DNA of 48,832 nt from Chitinophagaceae bacterium (GTDB lineage: Bacteria; Bacteroidota; Bacteroidia; Chitinophagales; Chitinophagaceae), in assembly GCA_031406595.1 (NCBI GenBank), contig JANOHQ010000256.1, positions 1 to 48,832 of the forward strand. Reading direction: 5' to 3'. This document shows, one piece after another, positions 10,513 through 46,773 of the stretch (positions within the stretch are counted from its first letter, which is position 1; each line of letters starts with the position of its first letter). The notes under the pieces are model-generated. The model had not been told where the DNA came from, ran no database searches, and saw nothing but the letters and a program-made list of their open reading frames with translations. Position numbers and translations under genes: made by a program.

Positions 10513-10620
10513 TTGAATCACCCTTCCTCCGTCAGGGCATGCTGCGGAGGAAAGGCACATAGTTTAATACATAGAAAACTATGTGACCCTATATTTCTAT
10601 GTTACTCCTATGTGGTTCAA
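10513..10620. repeat. Composite palindromic element (CACATAG/CTATGTG type with a nested CCTTCCTCCG..CGGAGGAAAGG hairpin)
   Basis: TTGAATCAC[insert]CACATAG ... CTATGTGGTTCAA; related copy at 45463-45560. Confidence 0.65.
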
Positions 10621-17287: not shown

Positions 17288-18106
17288 ATGTCATTTGCCA
17301 ATAAGACAGCGATCATTACCGGGGGTACCCGGGGTATCGGGAAAGCCATTGCCCTGAAGTTAGCCGCAGAGGGCGCTAATATTGTGATCGCTGCCAAAAG
17401 CGTGGAAGAGAACCCCAAACTCGGCGGTACGATCTTTACGGCAGCGGCCGAGATTGAGGCAGCGGGAGGCAAGGCGCTGGCGGTGCAATGCGATATCCGT
17501 TTTGAGGATCAAGTACAGAACGTGATCGATAAGACGATAGAGAAATTCGGCGGTATCGATATCCTGGTCAATAATGCTTCGGCGATCTCACTCACCGGTA
17601 CTGAACAAACCGAATCCAAACGTTTCGACCTGATGCAGTCGATCAATGTGAGAGGAACATTCCTGGTTACCAAAGCCTGTATCCCTTATTTAAAAAAAAC
17701 GGAGAATCCTCATATCCTTACTTTGTCGCCACCCATCAACCTCGATCCGAAATGGTTTGAGAAACATGTGGCGTATACCCTCACCAAGTATAATATGAGC
17801 ATGATGACGATCGGTTGGGCAGCCGAATTCAAGAAAGACAGGATCGCTGCCAATGCGCTCTGGCCAAGGACCACCATCGATACGGCTGCGGTAAGAAACC
17901 TGCTCGGCGGCACTATGCTCGCCAATATGAGTCGTACGGTGGATATCATCGCCGATGCCGCTTATTATATTCTTCGTCAGCCTTCCACTGAATGCACCGG
18001 TAATTTATTCGTGGATGAACAGGTACTGGCAAAAGAAGGGATCACGGACCTGGAGAAATATTCGGTAGTGCCGGGAGCGAAGTTGTATAATGATTTGTTT
18101 GTGTGA
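17288..18106 (+). CDS. SDR family NAD(P)-dependent oxidoreductase (HSDL2-like)
   Basis: TGGTRGIG, NNASA, YTLTK catalytic motif, NALWPRT. Confidence 0.93.
   Translation: MSFANKTAIITGGTRGIGKAIALKLAAEGANIVIAAKSVEENPKLGGTIFTAAAEIEAAGGKALAVQCDIRFEDQVQNVIDKTIEKFGGIDILVNNASAISLTGTEQTESKRFDLMQSINVRGTFLVTKACIPYLKKTENPHILTLSPPINLDPKWFEKHVAYTLTKYNMSMMTIGWAAEFKKDRIAANALWPRTTIDTAAVRNLLGGTMLANMSRTVDIIADAAYYILRQPSTECTGNLFVDEQVLAKEGITDLEKYSVVPGAKLYNDLFV
18042..18106 (+). repeat. 65-bp direct repeat, copy 1 (3' end of the SDR gene)
   Basis: 58/65 identical to 19121-19185. Confidence 0.9.
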
Positions 18107-18121
18107 TTTTAATATAGAGGA

Positions 18122-19084
18122 ATGAAAAGGGGAATGTTTGTTTTATTGTTCTGTGCTTTTTTCATTAAAGCACTTAGCCAACGAAAGGATTTTGAAGGAA
18201 TCATTACTTATAAAATAGAAGTAAAATCAAAAAGTGGTCAAATCTCTGATAAAATGATGGGAATTTTTTTGGCGCTTGGGGGCGACAAAAAGACAACCTA
18301 TATAAAATCGGGCAACTACCGGCAGAGTTCAGGTTTTACGGAAGTGTACTACATAAACAAGGATCAGAAAGTTTATTATAAGTTTAAAAATGTAGACACG
18401 CTTTACTACCTGGACTATGCTTCTGATACCAGTAAGGTGATTGGTATTTCCAGGCCGAAGGAGCAGCAAAAAATCATGGGCTTTCAATGTAATTCAATTG
18501 TTTTGAAATCCAATTCCGGTACAACCAAATACTTTTTTTCCCCGCAACTTCGTCAGAACCCTGCATATGATAAAGACAATACGATTGGTAATTTCAATGT
18601 TTATGCGAAGGAAACAGGATCGGTATGGCTTTCGTGTTACGATGAGGCAAACCTGTATAGTACCTTGCACACAGCTACCAAAGTAGATGACAAACCAATT
18701 GGCGAAAATATTTTTGAATTGCCGGCGCTCCCCCAGAAAAAATTTATTTCAAGTGAAATGATCAGAGAGCCCGAATTTGGCGGTAATACTACCTGGAAGA
18801 AATACCTGGAAACAAAAACCAATAATGCGTTGGGATCGGAATATATAGAGATCCCTAAAGGAGAATCGGGTGCCATCCAGGTTGTCAAAGTGAGTTTTTG
18901 GGTATCAGAAAAGGGGGAAGTGCAACAGGTTTCTATTTTAAATGCTAACGAAATACATCCTAAGCTGGCAGAAGAAGCTATACGGGTAGTAAAAACATCA
19001 GGAATCTGGAAACCGGCTACCATTTACGGCGAGAAGATCGACTTTGTGCTGAACCAGCCAATCACTTTCCAGGTGTATAAATAA
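18122..19084 (+). CDS. Exported protein with C-terminal TonB_C domain
   Basis: Signal peptide, FEGIITY N-domain; PEFGG..W.KYL, VSFWVSEKGEV, EEAIRVV, WKPA, QPITF. Confidence 0.8.
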   Translation: MKRGMFVLLFCAFFIKALSQRKDFEGIITYKIEVKSKSGQISDKMMGIFLALGGDKKTTYIKSGNYRQSSGFTEVYYINKDQKVYYKFKNVDTLYYLDYASDTSKVIGISRPKEQQKIMGFQCNSIVLKSNSGTTKYFFSPQLRQNPAYDKDNTIGNFNVYAKETGSVWLSCYDEANLYSTLHTATKVDDKPIGENIFELPALPQKKFISSEMIREPEFGGNTTWKKYLETKTNNALGSEYIEIPKGESGAIQVVKVSFWVSEKGEVQQVSILNANEIHPKLAEEAIRVVKTSGIWKPATIYGEKIDFVLNQPITFQVYK

Positions 19085-19120: not shown

Positions 19121-19185
19121 TCACGGACCTGGAGAAATATTCGGTGGTGCCGGGTGGGAAATTGTATAGTGATTTGTTTGTGTAG
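19121..19185 (+). repeat. 65-bp direct repeat, copy 2 (orphan SDR 3' end)
   Basis: Encodes TDLEKYSVVPGGKLYSDLFV* versus TDLEKYSVVPGAKLYNDLFV*. Confidence 0.9.
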
Positions 19186-25411: not shown

Positions 25412-25565
25412 AACAGTAGTTTTGGGATTACCTACTCGTATCGCTTTTCGGTAAAGGCGCCTTACTCTTTTGTGGGGATTTTCAGGAATTTCCCGGGTCT
25501 AAAATAACTAAAACCTGCCGCAAACTTAAGTAAACCAAACGATTTTCAAAACAGGCTCTTTTTTA

Positions 25566-25714
25566 GGTACTGGGTCAGTTTGAAATTTGAACCACCAAGA
25601 CAGGAAGACACAAAGTAACCCAAAGGTGTCTTAGTGAAGCCTTTGTGTCCTCGTGCCTTCGTGGTTCATTTATTAATATTTTGAAACCCGATAGCTATCG
25701 GGTGACCCACTACC
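25566..25714. repeat. Three-layer nested palindromic element
   Basis: Outer IR GGTACTGGGTCAGTTTGAAA / TTTGAAAC..TGACCCACTACC; middle IR 25588-25615 / 25641-25668 (24/28); palindrome CCCGATAGCTATCGGG at 25687-25702. Confidence 0.8.
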
Positions 25715-26703: not shown

Positions 26704-27393
26704 ATGAAAAACATATTGATCGCCGCGATCCTCTCGTTGTCACTCAGCAGTTGTGACGTGTTATCCAAACTTCCCACCGGCACCGGTGTTACCGAAGGCG
26801 AAGCAGCCGAAGGGATCAAAGAGGCATTGGGGCAGGGCCTGGTAAAAGCGGTATTACAATTGAACAGGACCGACGGGTTCTTCAAAGACGCATTGTATAA
26901 GATACTGATGCCGCCGGATGCCAGGAAGATCGAGAACACGCTCCGTGATATTGGAATGGGTAAGATGGTCGACAAAGCCATTCTCCAGATCAACCGGGCG
27001 GCGGAAGATGCCGCCGGATTTGCCAAACCCATTTTTGTGGATGCCATCAAGAGTATGACACTCAGCGATGCGATCGGGTTGGTAAGGAACGGTGACACCA
27101 GTGCCACGCATTTTTTCCGGGTGAAGACCACGGATAGACTGATCGCAGCATTTTTCCCGGTGATAAAAAGTTCGCTGGATAAAGTGGAAGCCACCAAATA
27201 CTATAGCGATGTGATCAATACTTACAATAATTTTCCCACAACCCTCAGGAAGCTTAATCCCGACCTTCCGGGCTTTGTGACCAGCAGGGCCACTAATGCC
27301 TTATTTGACCTGGTAGCAAAGGAAGAAGTAAATATCCGTCAGAATATTGCGGCCCGGACAACAGAATTATTACGAAAAGTATTTGGCAGGTAA
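26704..27393 (+). CDS. DUF4197 family lipoprotein
   Basis: Lipobox LSSC; GIKEAL.QG, DGFF, NRAAEDA, AKPIFVDA, EE.NIR. Confidence 0.9.
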   Translation: MKNILIAAILSLSLSSCDVLSKLPTGTGVTEGEAAEGIKEALGQGLVKAVLQLNRTDGFFKDALYKILMPPDARKIENTLRDIGMGKMVDKAILQINRAAEDAAGFAKPIFVDAIKSMTLSDAIGLVRNGDTSATHFFRVKTTDRLIAAFFPVIKSSLDKVEATKYYSDVINTYNNFPTTLRKLNPDLPGFVTSRATNALFDLVAKEEVNIRQNIAARTTELLRKVFGR

Positions 27394-27395
27394 CC

Positions 27396-27420
27396 GTCTG
27401 GCCGCTCCAAGCGGCCAGAC
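27396..27420. repeat. Perfect GC-rich hairpin (REP-like or terminator)
   Basis: GTCTGGCCGC-TCCAA-GCGGCCAGAC; no U tract. Confidence 0.6.
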
Positions 27421-27522
27421 CGCAATCCGGCGCAACCAATAGCCTAAAATATCGTCAAATATTCCGGCAGGGTCGTTTGGCAGCCCCGCCCATGCTATCT
27501 TGCGTTCACAAACCAGTTAGAT

Positions 27523-28239
27523 ATGAAAACTTTTTTTACCCTTTCGCTATTTAGCCTGTTGCTTTTCCCCGCTGTGTCAGACGCCCAGCTCAAGCTTCCC
27601 GATATCTTAACTAAGAAAAAAGGCTCCGGCATTACCGAGAATGAAGCAGGACAGGGGATCAAAGAAGCGCTCTTGCAGGGTGTTACAACGGCTGTACTTA
27701 ATCTTAATAAGACAGATGGATTCTTTGGCAGCGAGTTTTATAAAATGTTACTGCCCGAGGATGCTAAAAAAGCAGAGAAAACACTCCGCAACCTTGGAAT
27801 GGGTGCACAGGTCGATAAAGCGGTCCTTTCCATCAACCGTGGCGCCGAAGATGCGGTGGCTTTTGCCAAACCAATTTTTATTGACGCGGTAAAAGAAATG
27901 ACACTGACCGATGCGTTGAATATCATTAAAGGAGATAAGGATGAAGCCACGAAATATTTTAAGAAAAAGACACAGGAAAAATTGATCACTGCCTTCACTC
28001 CCTCTGTAAAAACTTCATTGGATAAAGTGGATGCCACTAAACATTATTCAGATATTATCACTACCTATAATAAACTCCCTACTACTTTCAAAAAGATCAA
28101 TCCCGATCTTACATCTTATGTGGTAGGGAAAGCGGTAGATGCATTATTTGACCAGGTGGCCAAAGAAGAAGCGAATATCCGGGCCAATCCGCTGGCGAGA
28201 ACTTCGGATATCTTAAAGAAAGTATTTGGAAGTAAGTAG
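27523..28239 (+). CDS. DUF4197 family exported protein (paralog of upstream gene)
   Basis: Same motifs as 26704-27393; SPI-type signal. Confidence 0.9.
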   Translation: MKTFFTLSLFSLLLFPAVSDAQLKLPDILTKKKGSGITENEAGQGIKEALLQGVTTAVLNLNKTDGFFGSEFYKMLLPEDAKKAEKTLRNLGMGAQVDKAVLSINRGAEDAVAFAKPIFIDAVKEMTLTDALNIIKGDKDEATKYFKKKTQEKLITAFTPSVKTSLDKVDATKHYSDIITTYNKLPTTFKKINPDLTSYVVGKAVDALFDQVAKEEANIRANPLARTSDILKKVFGSK

Positions 28240-29483: not shown

Positions 29484-30365
29484 TCAGACCCCGGCCAATA
29501 ATATCTGCCAGGCCTCTTTTACCCGGCCTTCATCCAGCAGCTTTTTGGCGTAGAGATGAAGCTCCTTTTCCATCTCGTCGGGGTTAATGTTGTAGTATTG
29601 AATGATTTGCTTAAGGTGTGGGTCATCAAAAGAAGGTTCGATCACCGGGAGATCGTGTACATTGGCCAGTTGCCCGAGATGATTCCCGCTTAAGTGTTTA
29701 CTGGTGCGGATAGTAGCGGGCAGGGCATCCACCCCGATCCCGATTTCGGTATTAGGTTTTTCTACACGGAAGAGATTGTTCTCGTTGACGACACAGTACC
29801 AGTCGCCGCCCAGCCTTGCCACATGATTGATCTTGCGCTGATCTATTTTACCGGCTGCATCCAATAAGGAATCATCAATATGCATCACCAGCACTTCGCA
29901 GATTACTAGATTGCCGGCACCGCCTTCCGTTCCCAATGGTTTTACTTCGATCACTTTGCACTCCAGTCTCGCCACACTTTCTTTTACCATCGGTGGCCGG
30001 ATGACCGTCGATGGAACAGCGGTAAAACCGGCTTTGATGAATTCATTGCTCTCTTTGGGAAACTCGCAACTGGCCAGCGAGGTTTGTTGTACCATATCAT
30101 AGGTTACAATATTGATCGCCACCTCGGGTACTCCCAATACGTTCTGTAATGTGTGCTTGGTCGTATTATCCCTTACTCTTCGGGCAGGAGAAAAAACAAC
30201 GATGGGTGGGTTGGAAGAAAATAAATTAAAAAAACTGAAAGGGCTGAGGTTGACGTTGCCGGCCTTATCAATAGTGGAAGCAAAGCAAATAGGACGGGGT
30301 GCAATAATATGCTGGAGATAATATTGCTTTTCGGCCGGCTTGAGATTTTTCAGATCAAGGATCAT
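29484..30365 (-). CDS. Flavin reductase (DIM6/NTAB) family protein
   Basis: APRPICFAST, NLSPFSFFN, KHTL.N, ARLGGDWY. Confidence 0.92.
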   Translation of the reverse strand: MILDLKNLKPAEKQYYLQHIIAPRPICFASTIDKAGNVNLSPFSFFNLFSSNPPIVVFSPARRVRDNTTKHTLQNVLGVPEVAINIVTYDMVQQTSLASCEFPKESNEFIKAGFTAVPSTVIRPPMVKESVARLECKVIEVKPLGTEGGAGNLVICEVLVMHIDDSLLDAAGKIDQRKINHVARLGGDWYCVVNENNLFRVEKPNTEIGIGVDALPATIRTSKHLSGNHLGQLANVHDLPVIEPSFDDPHLKQIIQYYNINPDEMEKELHLYAKKLLDEGRVKEAWQILLAGV

Positions 30366-30376
30366 AGAATGATATT

Positions 30377-30865
30377 TTAACCGCAGAGACGGGGAGACGC
30401 AGCGCTAATAAATTAAAATTTATTTACAAATCTTCGGAAACCCTCCATGAGCCTGACAATATTAAAATTTACAAGATAACCCAGTCTTTTGTCCGTCAAT
30501 TTCAAATGGCTGATAATTTGAGCCTCATGAACCGGGTGGATAGCTTCACAGGCTTTAGCTTCTATTATTATTTCTTTTTCAACCAACAAATCAATTTCAT
30601 AGTATTTACCGGTATCGTGTCCTTTATAAAACAAGGGCACTTTTACTTCTGCCTCAGAAAAAATCCCCCTCAGTTCCAGCTCCTTTCTCAACGCAAAAAC
30701 ATATACCGATTCCAAAAGACCAGGCCCGAGCTCCATATGAACTGTAATACACGAATCGAGTATTTCGGCTCCAAGTGCATTTAGTTCATCCCGGGTCATC
30801 TGATTTTTTATTATCGTTATATGTAGTGAATCTAAAATTCTGCGCCTCCCTGTCTCTGCGGTTAA
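30377..30865. mobile_element. Putative GxxExxY element: gene flanked by 26-bp terminal inverted repeats
   Basis: TTAACCGCAGAGACGGGGAGACGCAG (30377-30402) and CTGCGCCTCCCTGTCTCTGCGGTTAA (30840-30865), 24/26 complementary. Confidence 0.65.
30413..30799 (-). CDS. GxxExxY protein (PD-(D/E)XK nuclease superfamily)
   Basis: VH.ELGPGLLESVY, IDLLVE..IIIEAK, HEAQ, LGYLVNFN; start MTRDELN. Confidence 0.92.
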   Translation of the reverse strand: MTRDELNALGAEILDSCITVHMELGPGLLESVYVFALRKELELRGIFSEAEVKVPLFYKGHDTGKYYEIDLLVEKEIIIEAKACEAIHPVHEAQIISHLKLTDKRLGYLVNFNIVRLMEGFRRFVNKF

Positions 30866-40209: not shown

Positions 40210-40350
40210 TTCACGCAGAGTGCGTGGGGAACCTGCCTTTGCCGGCAGGCAAGCGCAGAGAGTAATTTGTCCGAAATCCTGCGAACACGATCCTTCGTGG
40301 CCGCCCGGGACTATCGGGTCAGCGTCCCGAAGCCTCGGGATCAGTGTGCA
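40210..40350. repeat. Degenerate composite palindromic element
   Basis: TTCACGCAGAG..CGCAGAG arms with embedded CCTGCC..GGCAGGCAAG, CCCGGGACTATCGGG and TCCCGAAGCCTCGGGA. Confidence 0.5.
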
Positions 40351-45462: not shown

Positions 45463-45560
45463 CCCTTTCTTCGCTGGATAGGCTACGGATACAGCAGGCC
45501 ACAGTAAAAAAACACATAGCGACTATGTGAAACCCTATGTTTCTAATGTTATGTGGTGAA
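45463..45560. repeat. Composite palindromic element, sibling of 10513-10620
   Basis: CTTCGCTGGATAGGCTACGGA..AGG then CACATAG..CTATGTG..CCCTATGTTTCTA..TATGTGGT. Confidence 0.6.
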
Positions 45561-45564
45561 TTTG

Positions 45565-46200
45565 TCAGAAAGAGAAAGGAAGCCGGACCTCAATATTCTC
45601 CCATGCCATCAGGAGATCTACGCCACCGGTTCGCATCTGGAAGACCATTGTAAAAAATTCAATAGCGTTGGATGTTTGCTGAACAGGTACAGTATACCGG
45701 GCTATATCGCTGGCAGGGTCAGGTTGAAGACCCCAGCTGTCGATATTACTATTTAGTATGATCGTCCAGGTTTCCTGCCCAGGTATGCAATAAAGAATAT
45801 AACGGCCGGCGGGGATCTTTTTCCCCTGTATTGTCGCATCTGTATAGAGATCCAGTTCAGTAGCTTCATTGGCACCCAGGCGCCAGGGTTCACCATATTT
45901 TAATACATCATGAAATAATTGCCTGCCCTGCAGGTGCGGGCGGCTGTAGATCACTCTTGCCCGCGGTGGAACGGTCGGCGTCTTTGTCATTTTCAGTTTC
46001 GGGTAGTCGGCAGGGTAATAGCTCATATCCATCGGTGACAGATCCACAGGCACATAATTGTTGGTCGTCTTTTCCGGCCGGGGCCTGGTGATGGTATCAT
46101 TTTTAACGGTTTTGTCGGTGGGGGCCGGCTTTTCCTCTTTATTGTTATTACACGAAAAGAACAGGCAGGAAGCAAGCAATAAGAGGGCTGAGCGTTTCAT
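45565..46200 (-). CDS. DUF2911 family lipoprotein
   Basis: Lipobox FFSC; YSRP...GR, YGEPWRLGANEAT. Confidence 0.9.
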   Translation of the reverse strand: MKRSALLLLASCLFFSCNNNKEEKPAPTDKTVKNDTITRPRPEKTTNNYVPVDLSPMDMSYYPADYPKLKMTKTPTVPPRARVIYSRPHLQGRQLFHDVLKYGEPWRLGANEATELDLYTDATIQGKKIPAGRYILYCIPGQETWTIILNSNIDSWGLQPDPASDIARYTVPVQQTSNAIEFFTMVFQMRTGGVDLLMAWENIEVRLPFSF

Positions 46201-46209
46201 TGAACAATT

Positions 46210-46773
46210 TTAAAAACTGAAGGGAACGGAAACTTTTATAGTATCCCATCCAATAATAAGATTGAAGCCAAGCGTTGATTTTTCAAAACCCATGGCGAGT
46301 GATTCAATAGGGCTGTCCGTTTTCTGTACAGGCACATCTGTTCTCACCACATCTTTTTTTATATTGTATTTAAAAGAACCCCAGGTATCAGTGTCTTTGT
46401 TGATAATGATCGTCCAGCTGGTTTCATTGGCGATGGCATATAATGTATAACGTCCCTTGCTGACTTTTTTCCCGCCGATCCTCACATTTTTATAAAATTC
46501 GATCTCGGTGGCTTCATTCGCACCCAGCCTCCAGACTTCCCCGTATTTTACCAGCCCGCCATAGATCGTCCTGCCAGCTTTTTGCGGGCGGCTGTAAACC
46601 ACCCTGGCGGTCAACGGATCGGTTACCTTGTCCTGGATCTTCAATACCGGGTAACCAGCCGGATAATAGCTCATATCCATCGGCGATTTATCTACAGGGG
46701 GTAGTGGACCTTGTGCCATAAGGCCAATAAAACAACATTGAAACAGGACTACTAATGCAATGGCTTTTTTCAT
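46210..46773 (-). CDS. DUF2911 family exported protein (paralog)
   Basis: YSRPQKAGR, YGEVWRLGANEATE, shared SPMDMSYYP. Confidence 0.9.
   Translation of the reverse strand: MKKAIALVVLFQCCFIGLMAQGPLPPVDKSPMDMSYYPAGYPVLKIQDKVTDPLTARVVYSRPQKAGRTIYGGLVKYGEVWRLGANEATEIEFYKNVRIGGKKVSKGRYTLYAIANETSWTIIINKDTDTWGSFKYNIKKDVVRTDVPVQKTDSPIESLAMGFEKSTLGFNLIIGWDTIKVSVPFSF

Follow-up and report, generated by a model that had tools for sequence, protein, structure and literature searches.

A GxxExxY gene with a predicted nuclease fold between inverted arrays of seven-base words at an exchangeable gene junction

Introduction

The window (the whole stretch of 48,832 nt analysed here, from a Chitinophagaceae bacterium) carries a small GxxExxY gene enclosed by inverted repeats, located between a fumarylacetoacetate-hydrolase (FAH) family gene and a flavin-reductase-like gene. 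The first-pass annotation had proposed a minimal mobile element with gene-less siblings. The question raised by this locus is what kind of element it is: whether the gene and the repeats belong together, how they move, and what the protein would do with the repeats.

The cassette at the FAH/flavin-reductase junction

The features of the junction, in window coordinates, are as follows.

29484..30365, minus strand: flavin-reductase-like gene, the downstream host gene of the junction
30377..30402, plus strand: 3' (downstream) arm of the cassette, carrying the word array in inverted form; complementary to the 5' arm at 24 of 26 positions
30413..30799, minus strand: GxxExxY gene, 128 aa, predicted PD-(D/E)XK nuclease fold with the predicted catalytic D70/E80/K82 intact
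30840..30865, minus strand: 5' (upstream) arm of the cassette, three CGCAGAG-type words at 8-nt spacing; its terminal TAA is the FAH stop codon
30862..31869, minus strand: FAH family gene, the upstream host gene of the junction

The two arms (30377-30402 / 30840-30865) formed the longest inverted repeat of the window. Alignment of the arms and the ORF and profile checks bore out the earlier description of 26-bp arms, complementary at 24 of 26 positions and ended by TTAA, that enclose only the GxxExxY ORF. Both arms start with TTAA when read inwards, and the ORF at 30413-30799 (-) was the single real one between them. The coordinates also placed the FAH stop codon inside the terminal TTAA, and the ATG of the flavin reductase (30365) 11 bp from the nearer end of the cassette, as had been stated. 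The inverted-repeat score of the cassette was 42, which is above chance. A score of 24 was attained by 90 of 3182 control ORFs of the genome.

Among the contigs of four DNA sequencing runs, no joint skipping the cassette was found, and one contig, which may stem from the source campaign, spanned it unchanged. Promoter and terminator scans gave chance levels only, and there was no Rfam match within the window.

Other repeats were noted elsewhere in the window. A 63-nt direct repeat (18042-18104 / 19121-19183; 92% identical, 1079 bp apart) brackets the ORF at 18122-19084, and tandem paralogous gene pairs lie at 45565-46773 and 26704-28239 (repeat spacings of 648 and 843 bp, respectively).

The GxxExxY protein

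The window protein matched the TIGR04256 GxxExxY profile with 125 bits (cut-off 35) and PF13366 (PDDEXK_3), the only Pfam family matching it, with 123 bits (cut-off 22). PF13366 is described as a family of unknown function with multiple transfers (PMC3424549). Sequence search found no relative of solved structure. The predicted structure (pLDDT 95) gave PD-(D/E)XK proteins as the top structural matches, none standing clear; the best was 3ijm, an uncharacterised restriction-fold protein (Z 8.0, rmsd 3.3, 99 aligned), and Cas4 gave a Z of 7.9. Across the GxxExxY loci, D70 and K82 were each present in 227 of 227, and E80 in 222 of 227. The fold match and the conservation of these three residues supported the placement of GxxExxY in the PD-(D/E)XK superfamily made in the first-pass annotation; nuclease activity is a prediction. 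In the seven computable pairs out of 10, dN/dS was 0.03-0.07. This showed that the gene is under purifying selection.

This genome contains 13 GxxExxY genes, and the paralogues are just 28-44% identical to the window protein. An own arm pair was found at 10 of the 13, those inspected. The nearest named relative outside the genus, in a Chitinophaga MAG, was 73% identical. GxxExxY, a very common family, was present in 37 of 61 genomes of a phylum sample, and single genomes of this genus had as many as 16 copies. The paralogues were patchy even between sisters: G121 has five and G078 has two, with no orthologues shared. Among viral contigs, one of 112 pattern matches encoded a relative by the query used.

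In a separate architecture, a RecQ-like helicase (so called from its resemblance; L540:2202-4001 in G197) carries a GxxExxY domain as an in-frame fusion at its N-terminus. Such fused frames of 883 aa occurred in G197, G201 and G213.

Arms of seven-base words throughout the family

Matched arms (inverted-repeat score of at least 24) were present at 160 of 227 distinct GxxExxY loci from the genus and other genomes. Besides the control ORFs given above, 271 of 3000 non-cognate arm pairings reached this score. In a second set of loci, arms were found at 109 of 137. The first-pass annotation had made its proposal depend on inverted repeats in the flanks of other GxxExxY genes, and both sets provided them.

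Each arm was an array of words of the form C[AG]CN[AGT][AC][GT], spaced mostly by 8-9 nt. The dominant word was identical on both arms in 135 of the 160 loci (shuffles gave a mean of 50 and a maximum of 70), and it followed the protein tree. The first word spacing was equal on the two arms in 63 of 72 clean cassettes. Cassettes were excluded before counting if their flank was shorter than 150 nt, or if they had internal stops or a long fused frame, and the stricter word definitions were passed by 160, 108, 145 and 72 of the 227 loci, depending on the test. The GxxExxY nuclease-repeat cassette is thus real and family-wide.

One subclade of the window cassette (L027, L028, L102, L109 and L113, from G012, G019, G069, G163 and G170) had lost the downstream arm or had it degraded, and carried long tandem word arrays upstream.

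No description of arms around GxxExxY genes was found in the open-access literature searched, in which two papers mention GxxExxY, one of them incidentally; supplements of RNA-motif screens could list such repeats. A 'PAIR' motif of RNA-motif screens was sought and not found: no paper in that literature matched the phrase, and the main texts of three screens (PMC8632094, PMC6429828 and PMC5737381) contained nothing relevant. A GxxExxY cassette of this kind, with the design of Ssn and RAYT and a different fold, has apparently not been described previously.

Covariation of protein residues and word bases

In the first set of loci, residue 18 was the best predictor of word base 5 (A/G; p 0.0025), and residue 128 was the best predictor of word base 2 (A/G; p 0.0025). 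For these p values, traits were simulated on the tree and the best column was taken each time. The rules from the first set were applied to held-out loci, whose median identity to the nearest first-set locus was 62%. Word base 5 was correctly predicted by residue 11 in 53 of 58 cases, and by residues 14 and 18 in 47 of 60 cases each. Word base 2 was correctly predicted by residue 125 in 66 of 74, and by residue 128 in 66 of 69. The median protein column scored 0.5 in this set. Against tree-simulated traits, residues 11, 18, 125 and 128 each gave p 0.001, and all five were within 0.001-0.003.

Of the predictive residues, 18 alone had been named in advance; taken by itself in the phylum part of the held-out set, it was correct in 11 of 17 (p 0.33). 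An independent-pairs test was underpowered, with 2-6 supported pairs, and was never significant. GC bias was rejected as the source of the residue-11 link, which was kept in all three GC3 bins. A residue link to word position 7 (G/T; p 0.04) was not trusted, because this position changes just four times on the tree.

In the predicted structure, residues 11, 14 and 18 lie in helix 1 at a one-face spacing, and residues 125 and 128 are C-terminal. The window protein itself (A11, I18, V125, F128) agrees with its own CGCAGAG words.

At the level of aligned sequences, the covariation of residues and bases was shown to stand in held-out data. It shows co-evolution, which may or may not come from direct readout; the hydrophobic residues 14, 18, 125 and 128 may act via packing. 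The change of particular amino acids in step with word bases suggested that the enzyme likely reads its own ends, i.e. that it would recognise the word arrays.

Exchange of the junction content

The FAH locus was taken from 99 of 134 genus genomes with a match, the closest being favoured. The junction contained a GxxExxY cassette in 30 of the 99, a short non-coding insert, mostly a gene-less hairpin, in 23, and another gene in 17. It was empty or nearly so in 17 and unjoined in 12. The first-pass annotation had proposed a search for empty junctions; those found showed an ATGA overlap or a few bases and no TTAA.

The junction cassettes fell mainly in three clades, about 55% identical to one another. 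Sister species with different junction content were G078/G121, G022/G071, G139/G101, G061/G169, and this genome and G110. The junction element of G110 was a gene-less derivative of another cassette clade than that of this genome. Gene-less derivatives that keep the gene ends were present at the FAH/reductase junction in G110, G099 and G093.

The tree of the host FAH and reductase genes rejected a single clade for cassette type C (p-AU 1e-8) and for type A (1.4e-4). In the pair G119 and G169, drawn from 105 pairs examined (median difference +0.03), the synonymous-site difference was 0.12 in the cassette and 0.42 in FAH (Fisher 1e-9). The FAH genes nearest to that of G169 were those of G061 and G090 (0.20-0.22), two genomes with a gene-less element from a different family. 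In G119/G169, the cassette crossed species laterally at the same junction.

These sister and tree comparisons showed that the gene and the arms travel as one unit and that sister species replace the junction content wholesale. The view of the cassette as a single unit, not vertically conserved at the locus, was therefore upheld. Only the last 30 nt of FAH clearly tracked the junction content (p 0.002); the first 120 nt of the reductase gave weak signals. The visible FAH tract of about 30 nt is shorter than typical homing tracts.

Other cassettes were also seen at the junction. In four genomes (G002, G018, G115 and G138; L024, L031, L081 and L089) it contained a four-helix-bundle-like gene, the family being assigned by resemblance, in different inverted arms with a 7-nt period. 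The same type of cassette is present elsewhere in this genome (G000; C465:8774-9179 and C454:2074-2449), and at the junction of G159 a few bases are left of an arm of this type. The junction of G033 (L017) has word-array arms of the GxxExxY type around an unrelated 61-aa hydrophobic ORF.

Possible homing or gatekeeping

The explanation that we prefer, at about an even chance of being right, is a selfish cassette: the nuclease would bind its own word arrays and bias host recombination by cutting or nicking, with replacement of junction alleles. The arrays would be bound as DNA sites, residues 11, 14 and 18 going with base 5, and residues 125 and 128 with base 2. An array in the resident or the incoming allele would be cut or nicked. 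The cut would be repaired by host homologous recombination on the conserved flanking genes, and one junction allele would overwrite another in the manner of intronless homing. New junction lineages would arise from rare illegitimate integration beside a stop codon, and gene-less hairpins from internal deletions.

The multiplication of gene-less hairpins to new sites is not explained by this model, and a nuclease that cuts its own words would require a rule for self-protection. Much of the swapping could be ordinary recombination, because different word families interchange at the junction, and because four-helix-bundle cassettes and ordinary genes also occupy it without GxxExxY.

In an alternative that we consider unlikely, the protein is a gatekeeper like Ssn. 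It would cut incoming single-stranded DNA at cognate arrays and limit recombination, and the swapping at the junction would be ordinary recombination. Such a gatekeeper would persist by guarding its own junction from gene-less derivatives, or by benefit to the host. The same design is proven for the GIY-YIG protein Ssn, which restricts transforming DNA (PMC11893778). The covariation and the purifying selection fit equally well, and the gene-less derivatives of G110, G099 and G093, with their gene ends at the junction, are also in its favour. On the other hand, a genome can have as many as 16 paralogues, their words differ and their distribution is patchy even between sisters, which looks more selfish than domesticated; arrays of a family can also abound without a cognate gene.

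Small GIY-YIG-like genes between inverted repeats, Ssn-like by appearance, were noted in this genome at C22:14766-15117 and C288:9458-9797.

New sites, termini and target duplication

Among cassette pairs of at least 78% nucleotide identity, the neighbour gene was shared by 46 of 50 and not by the other four. Relatives of the window cassette at 84, 79 and 71% identity were located at two other junctions, and the highest nucleotide identity of a pair at different sites was 81.5%. The founding of new sites is thus rare.

From nine sister-site queries, L358 was left out because it fell at contig ends. In the eight informative comparisons, the sister contained an unrelated gene (two), a gene-less hairpin of another word family (two), a short spacer with a periodic remnant (two) or a short plain spacer (two). 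No clean target duplication was found in these eight; one had TAATTT at both ends, with an ambiguous empty form. TTAA was present at both ends in only 2 of the 70 cassettes scored and was absent from the empty FAH/reductase junctions, and therefore did not hold as a conserved end. A piggyBac-like TTAA target duplication was rejected by this count and by the sister-site comparisons.

These results bear on the mobility model of the first-pass annotation, a minimal transposon with MITE-like siblings, the protein being a transposase that would excise the arms, with or without the gene, and insert them at new sites. Arms that are inverted and contain several binding words are similar to the ends of transposons. 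Related cassettes do occur at different junctions, the copy numbers of gene-less families go into the tens, with some copies 90-97% identical, and TnsA is a PD-(D/E)XK transposase subunit (PMC3424549). Against it, the great majority of close cassette pairs (46/50) stay at one junction, the 13 copies in this genome are as divergent as 28-44% identity to the window protein, neither a clean target duplication nor conserved ends were found, and the gene-less CACATAG elements described below do not track their cognate gene (p 0.27). We know of no strand-transfer domain for a 128-aa nuclease. We regard a transposon as quite improbable.

Gene-less hairpins

Four gene-less elements in the window had been put forward as siblings of the cassette. 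None has an assigned strand.

10513..10620: gene-less CACATAG-family hairpin, one arm of which contains an inserted small palindrome; 31 places in the genome
25588..25668: gene-less hairpin with CACCAAG/CACAAAG words, a different arm family; 12 places in the genome, best copies 90-97% identical
40210..40350: degenerate gene-less element that has an arm of the CACGCAGAG type and insertions of several small palindromes; no long copy
45499..45560: degenerate gene-less hairpin of the CACATAG family; 19 places in the genome

The copy numbers of the 25588, 10513 and 45499 elements were determined by blastn. The arm of the 40210 element resembled that of the paralogue L009, not that of the window cassette. 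No other site of the window was within five mismatches of the cassette arm, and the only such sites genome-wide were C105:3063-3135 (a gene-less pair), C7:1222 and C259:4433. Thus the four elements exist, and three are in multi-copy families, but they belong to other arm families and are not siblings of the window arms.

A strict pattern detected 28 inward gene-less arm pairs in the genome, 23 of them shorter than 100 nt, and none in a Markov control. Three-word arrays were present in 37 of 38 genomes with GxxExxY and in 0 of 8 without it, these eight all being 1.6-2.2 Mb and not independent. Of 46 genomes, 14 had at least five matches to hairpins of CACATAG, the commonest family. Five of these 14 contained a cognate-clade gene, as did 6 of the 32 others (Fisher p 0.27). 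This genome has 77 CACATAG matches (47 separate elements), and no cognate-clade gene for them was found in its 90%-complete assembly. At the level of the family, the proposed correlation of repeat and gene is confounded with genome size, and at the level of the clade it failed. A strict pairing of autonomous and non-autonomous elements was not supported by the CACATAG result; the comparison with RAYT/REPIN is apt as a design.

Repeats of other kinds were associated with these elements. The 25588 element lies inside an outer inverted-repeat family (window 25563-25700; 23 arm matches, five complete pairs), which wraps different inner elements elsewhere in the genome (C21, C32, C163, C407 and C485). 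Small palindromes occur in or beside the arms of larger elements (window 25687-25702, 40210-40350 and 10513-10620); genome-wide, one 16-mer is found 20 times and one 14-mer 48 times.

Could another enzyme, such as a Y1/RAYT-like transposase, move the hairpins, with GxxExxY as a binding and perhaps self-regulating passenger? About ten Y1-like genes in this genome, gene-less families that thrive without a cognate GxxExxY, and the unrelated small membrane ORF between such arms at the junction of G033 all speak for cargo of this sort. We nevertheless find it very unlikely: the two Y1 genes inspected have their own, different repeats, and binding alone would not need invariant catalytic residues. 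The Y1/RAYT-like genes are at C292:2484-3057, C474:4917-5520 and about eight further loci; the two inspected carry repeat types of their own.

Possible pairing of the arms in RNA

The first-pass annotation had also suggested that the paired arms loop the insert out of the operon mRNA. An element acting in RNA, looped out or excised like the 23S rRNA intervening sequences cut by RNase III, would suit the 25-bp duplex that the coding-strand arms can form (-47.8 kcal/mol), the co-orientation of both neighbours at 150 of 203 loci, the symmetric first spacing (63/72) and the somewhat better agreement of word position 8 in register (0.46 vs 0.33), but it is highly improbable, as the antisense duplex is equally stable (-47.3), coding-strand mismatches in the 72 clean cassettes have no G·U bias (52 vs 64, p 0.31), the free word position 4 is not compensated (0.55 in vs 0.53 out of register), and a plain RNA stem does not require protein residues that track word bases.

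Meaning and comparison with known systems

Returning to homing, we tentatively put forward, with less than an even chance of being right, that GxxExxY cassettes form a new and widespread class of selfish elements, based on a 128-aa nuclease of restriction fold. They would home into fixed chromosomal gene junctions, read their own 7-base word arrays by a simple residue-to-base code, and compete with rival cassettes and gene-less derivatives. For a common protein family, the findings provide a predicted substrate in its own word arrays, a specificity code that is predicted to rest on few residues, and a concrete evolutionary behaviour, in which alleles are exchanged while the junction stays fixed. 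Enzyme-repeat systems of the Ssn/RAYT kind would gain a PD-(D/E)XK branch, unannotated intergenic hairpins would be accounted for as a large class, and sequence-specific nucleases of very small size might be obtained. The FAH/reductase locus contributed the evidence for exchange at a fixed junction, and spoke against ends of TTAA, siblings that are strictly cognate, and a stem in RNA.

Unlike a TIR insertion sequence or MITE, the GxxExxY cassette has no conserved termini, showed no clean target duplication in the eight sister comparisons, and had no near-identical autonomous copies at other sites.

The ORF-bearing intervening sequences of 23S rRNA (PMC4990558) are likewise units of about 450 nt with terminal complementary arms and one small ORF. 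A further likeness is that four-helix-bundle cassettes with 7-nt periodic arms (family by resemblance) occupy the same junction in relatives. However, intervening sequences lie inside rRNA and are excised by RNase III (PMC4990558), whereas the GxxExxY unit has protein genes on both sides, codes for a protein of nuclease fold and shows no RNA-pairing signature.

Free-standing homing endonucleases and intronless homing (PMC2988022) are similar in that a nuclease cassette occupies the gap between conserved genes of like orientation, is tied to its locus, is patchy, and is exchanged between relatives. I-Ssp6803I is a homing endonuclease of the PD-(D/E)XK fold (PMC3424549). As described, homing endonucleases lack repeat arms, make their cut in host sequence, often at a distance from the gene, and produce long tracts of co-conversion (PMC2988022); in contrast, the GxxExxY protein co-varies with the arms of its own cassette, and a tract of about 30 nt is visible.

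The REPtrons and TIRtrons of RAYT and TIRYT (PMC3733652, PMC6006769) share with the cassette a single gene between inverted repeats, divergent low-copy paralogues with their own repeat families, gene-less doublets and an imperfect co-occurrence of gene and repeat. They differ in being HUH Y1 tyrosine transposases with GTAG-type REPs or GGGGWSAS TIRs, all of which the GxxExxY cassette lacks.

In Ssn with its NTS/SRM repeats (PMC11893778), too, a small nuclease gene of a single domain has its cognate repeat on either side. The repeat is dispersed gene-less as well, there are many enzyme-repeat pairs, and recombination with incoming DNA is involved. Ssn is a GIY-YIG protein (cd10448), and each SRM is a hairpin of 20-50 nt (PMC11893778). 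GxxExxY differs by its PD-(D/E)XK fold, with no GIY-YIG match, by arms that are each a non-palindromic array of 7-base words, and by an activity that is predicted. As in the Ssn/SRM system, a cognate repeat was found on both sides of the GxxExxY gene and dispersed in the genome.
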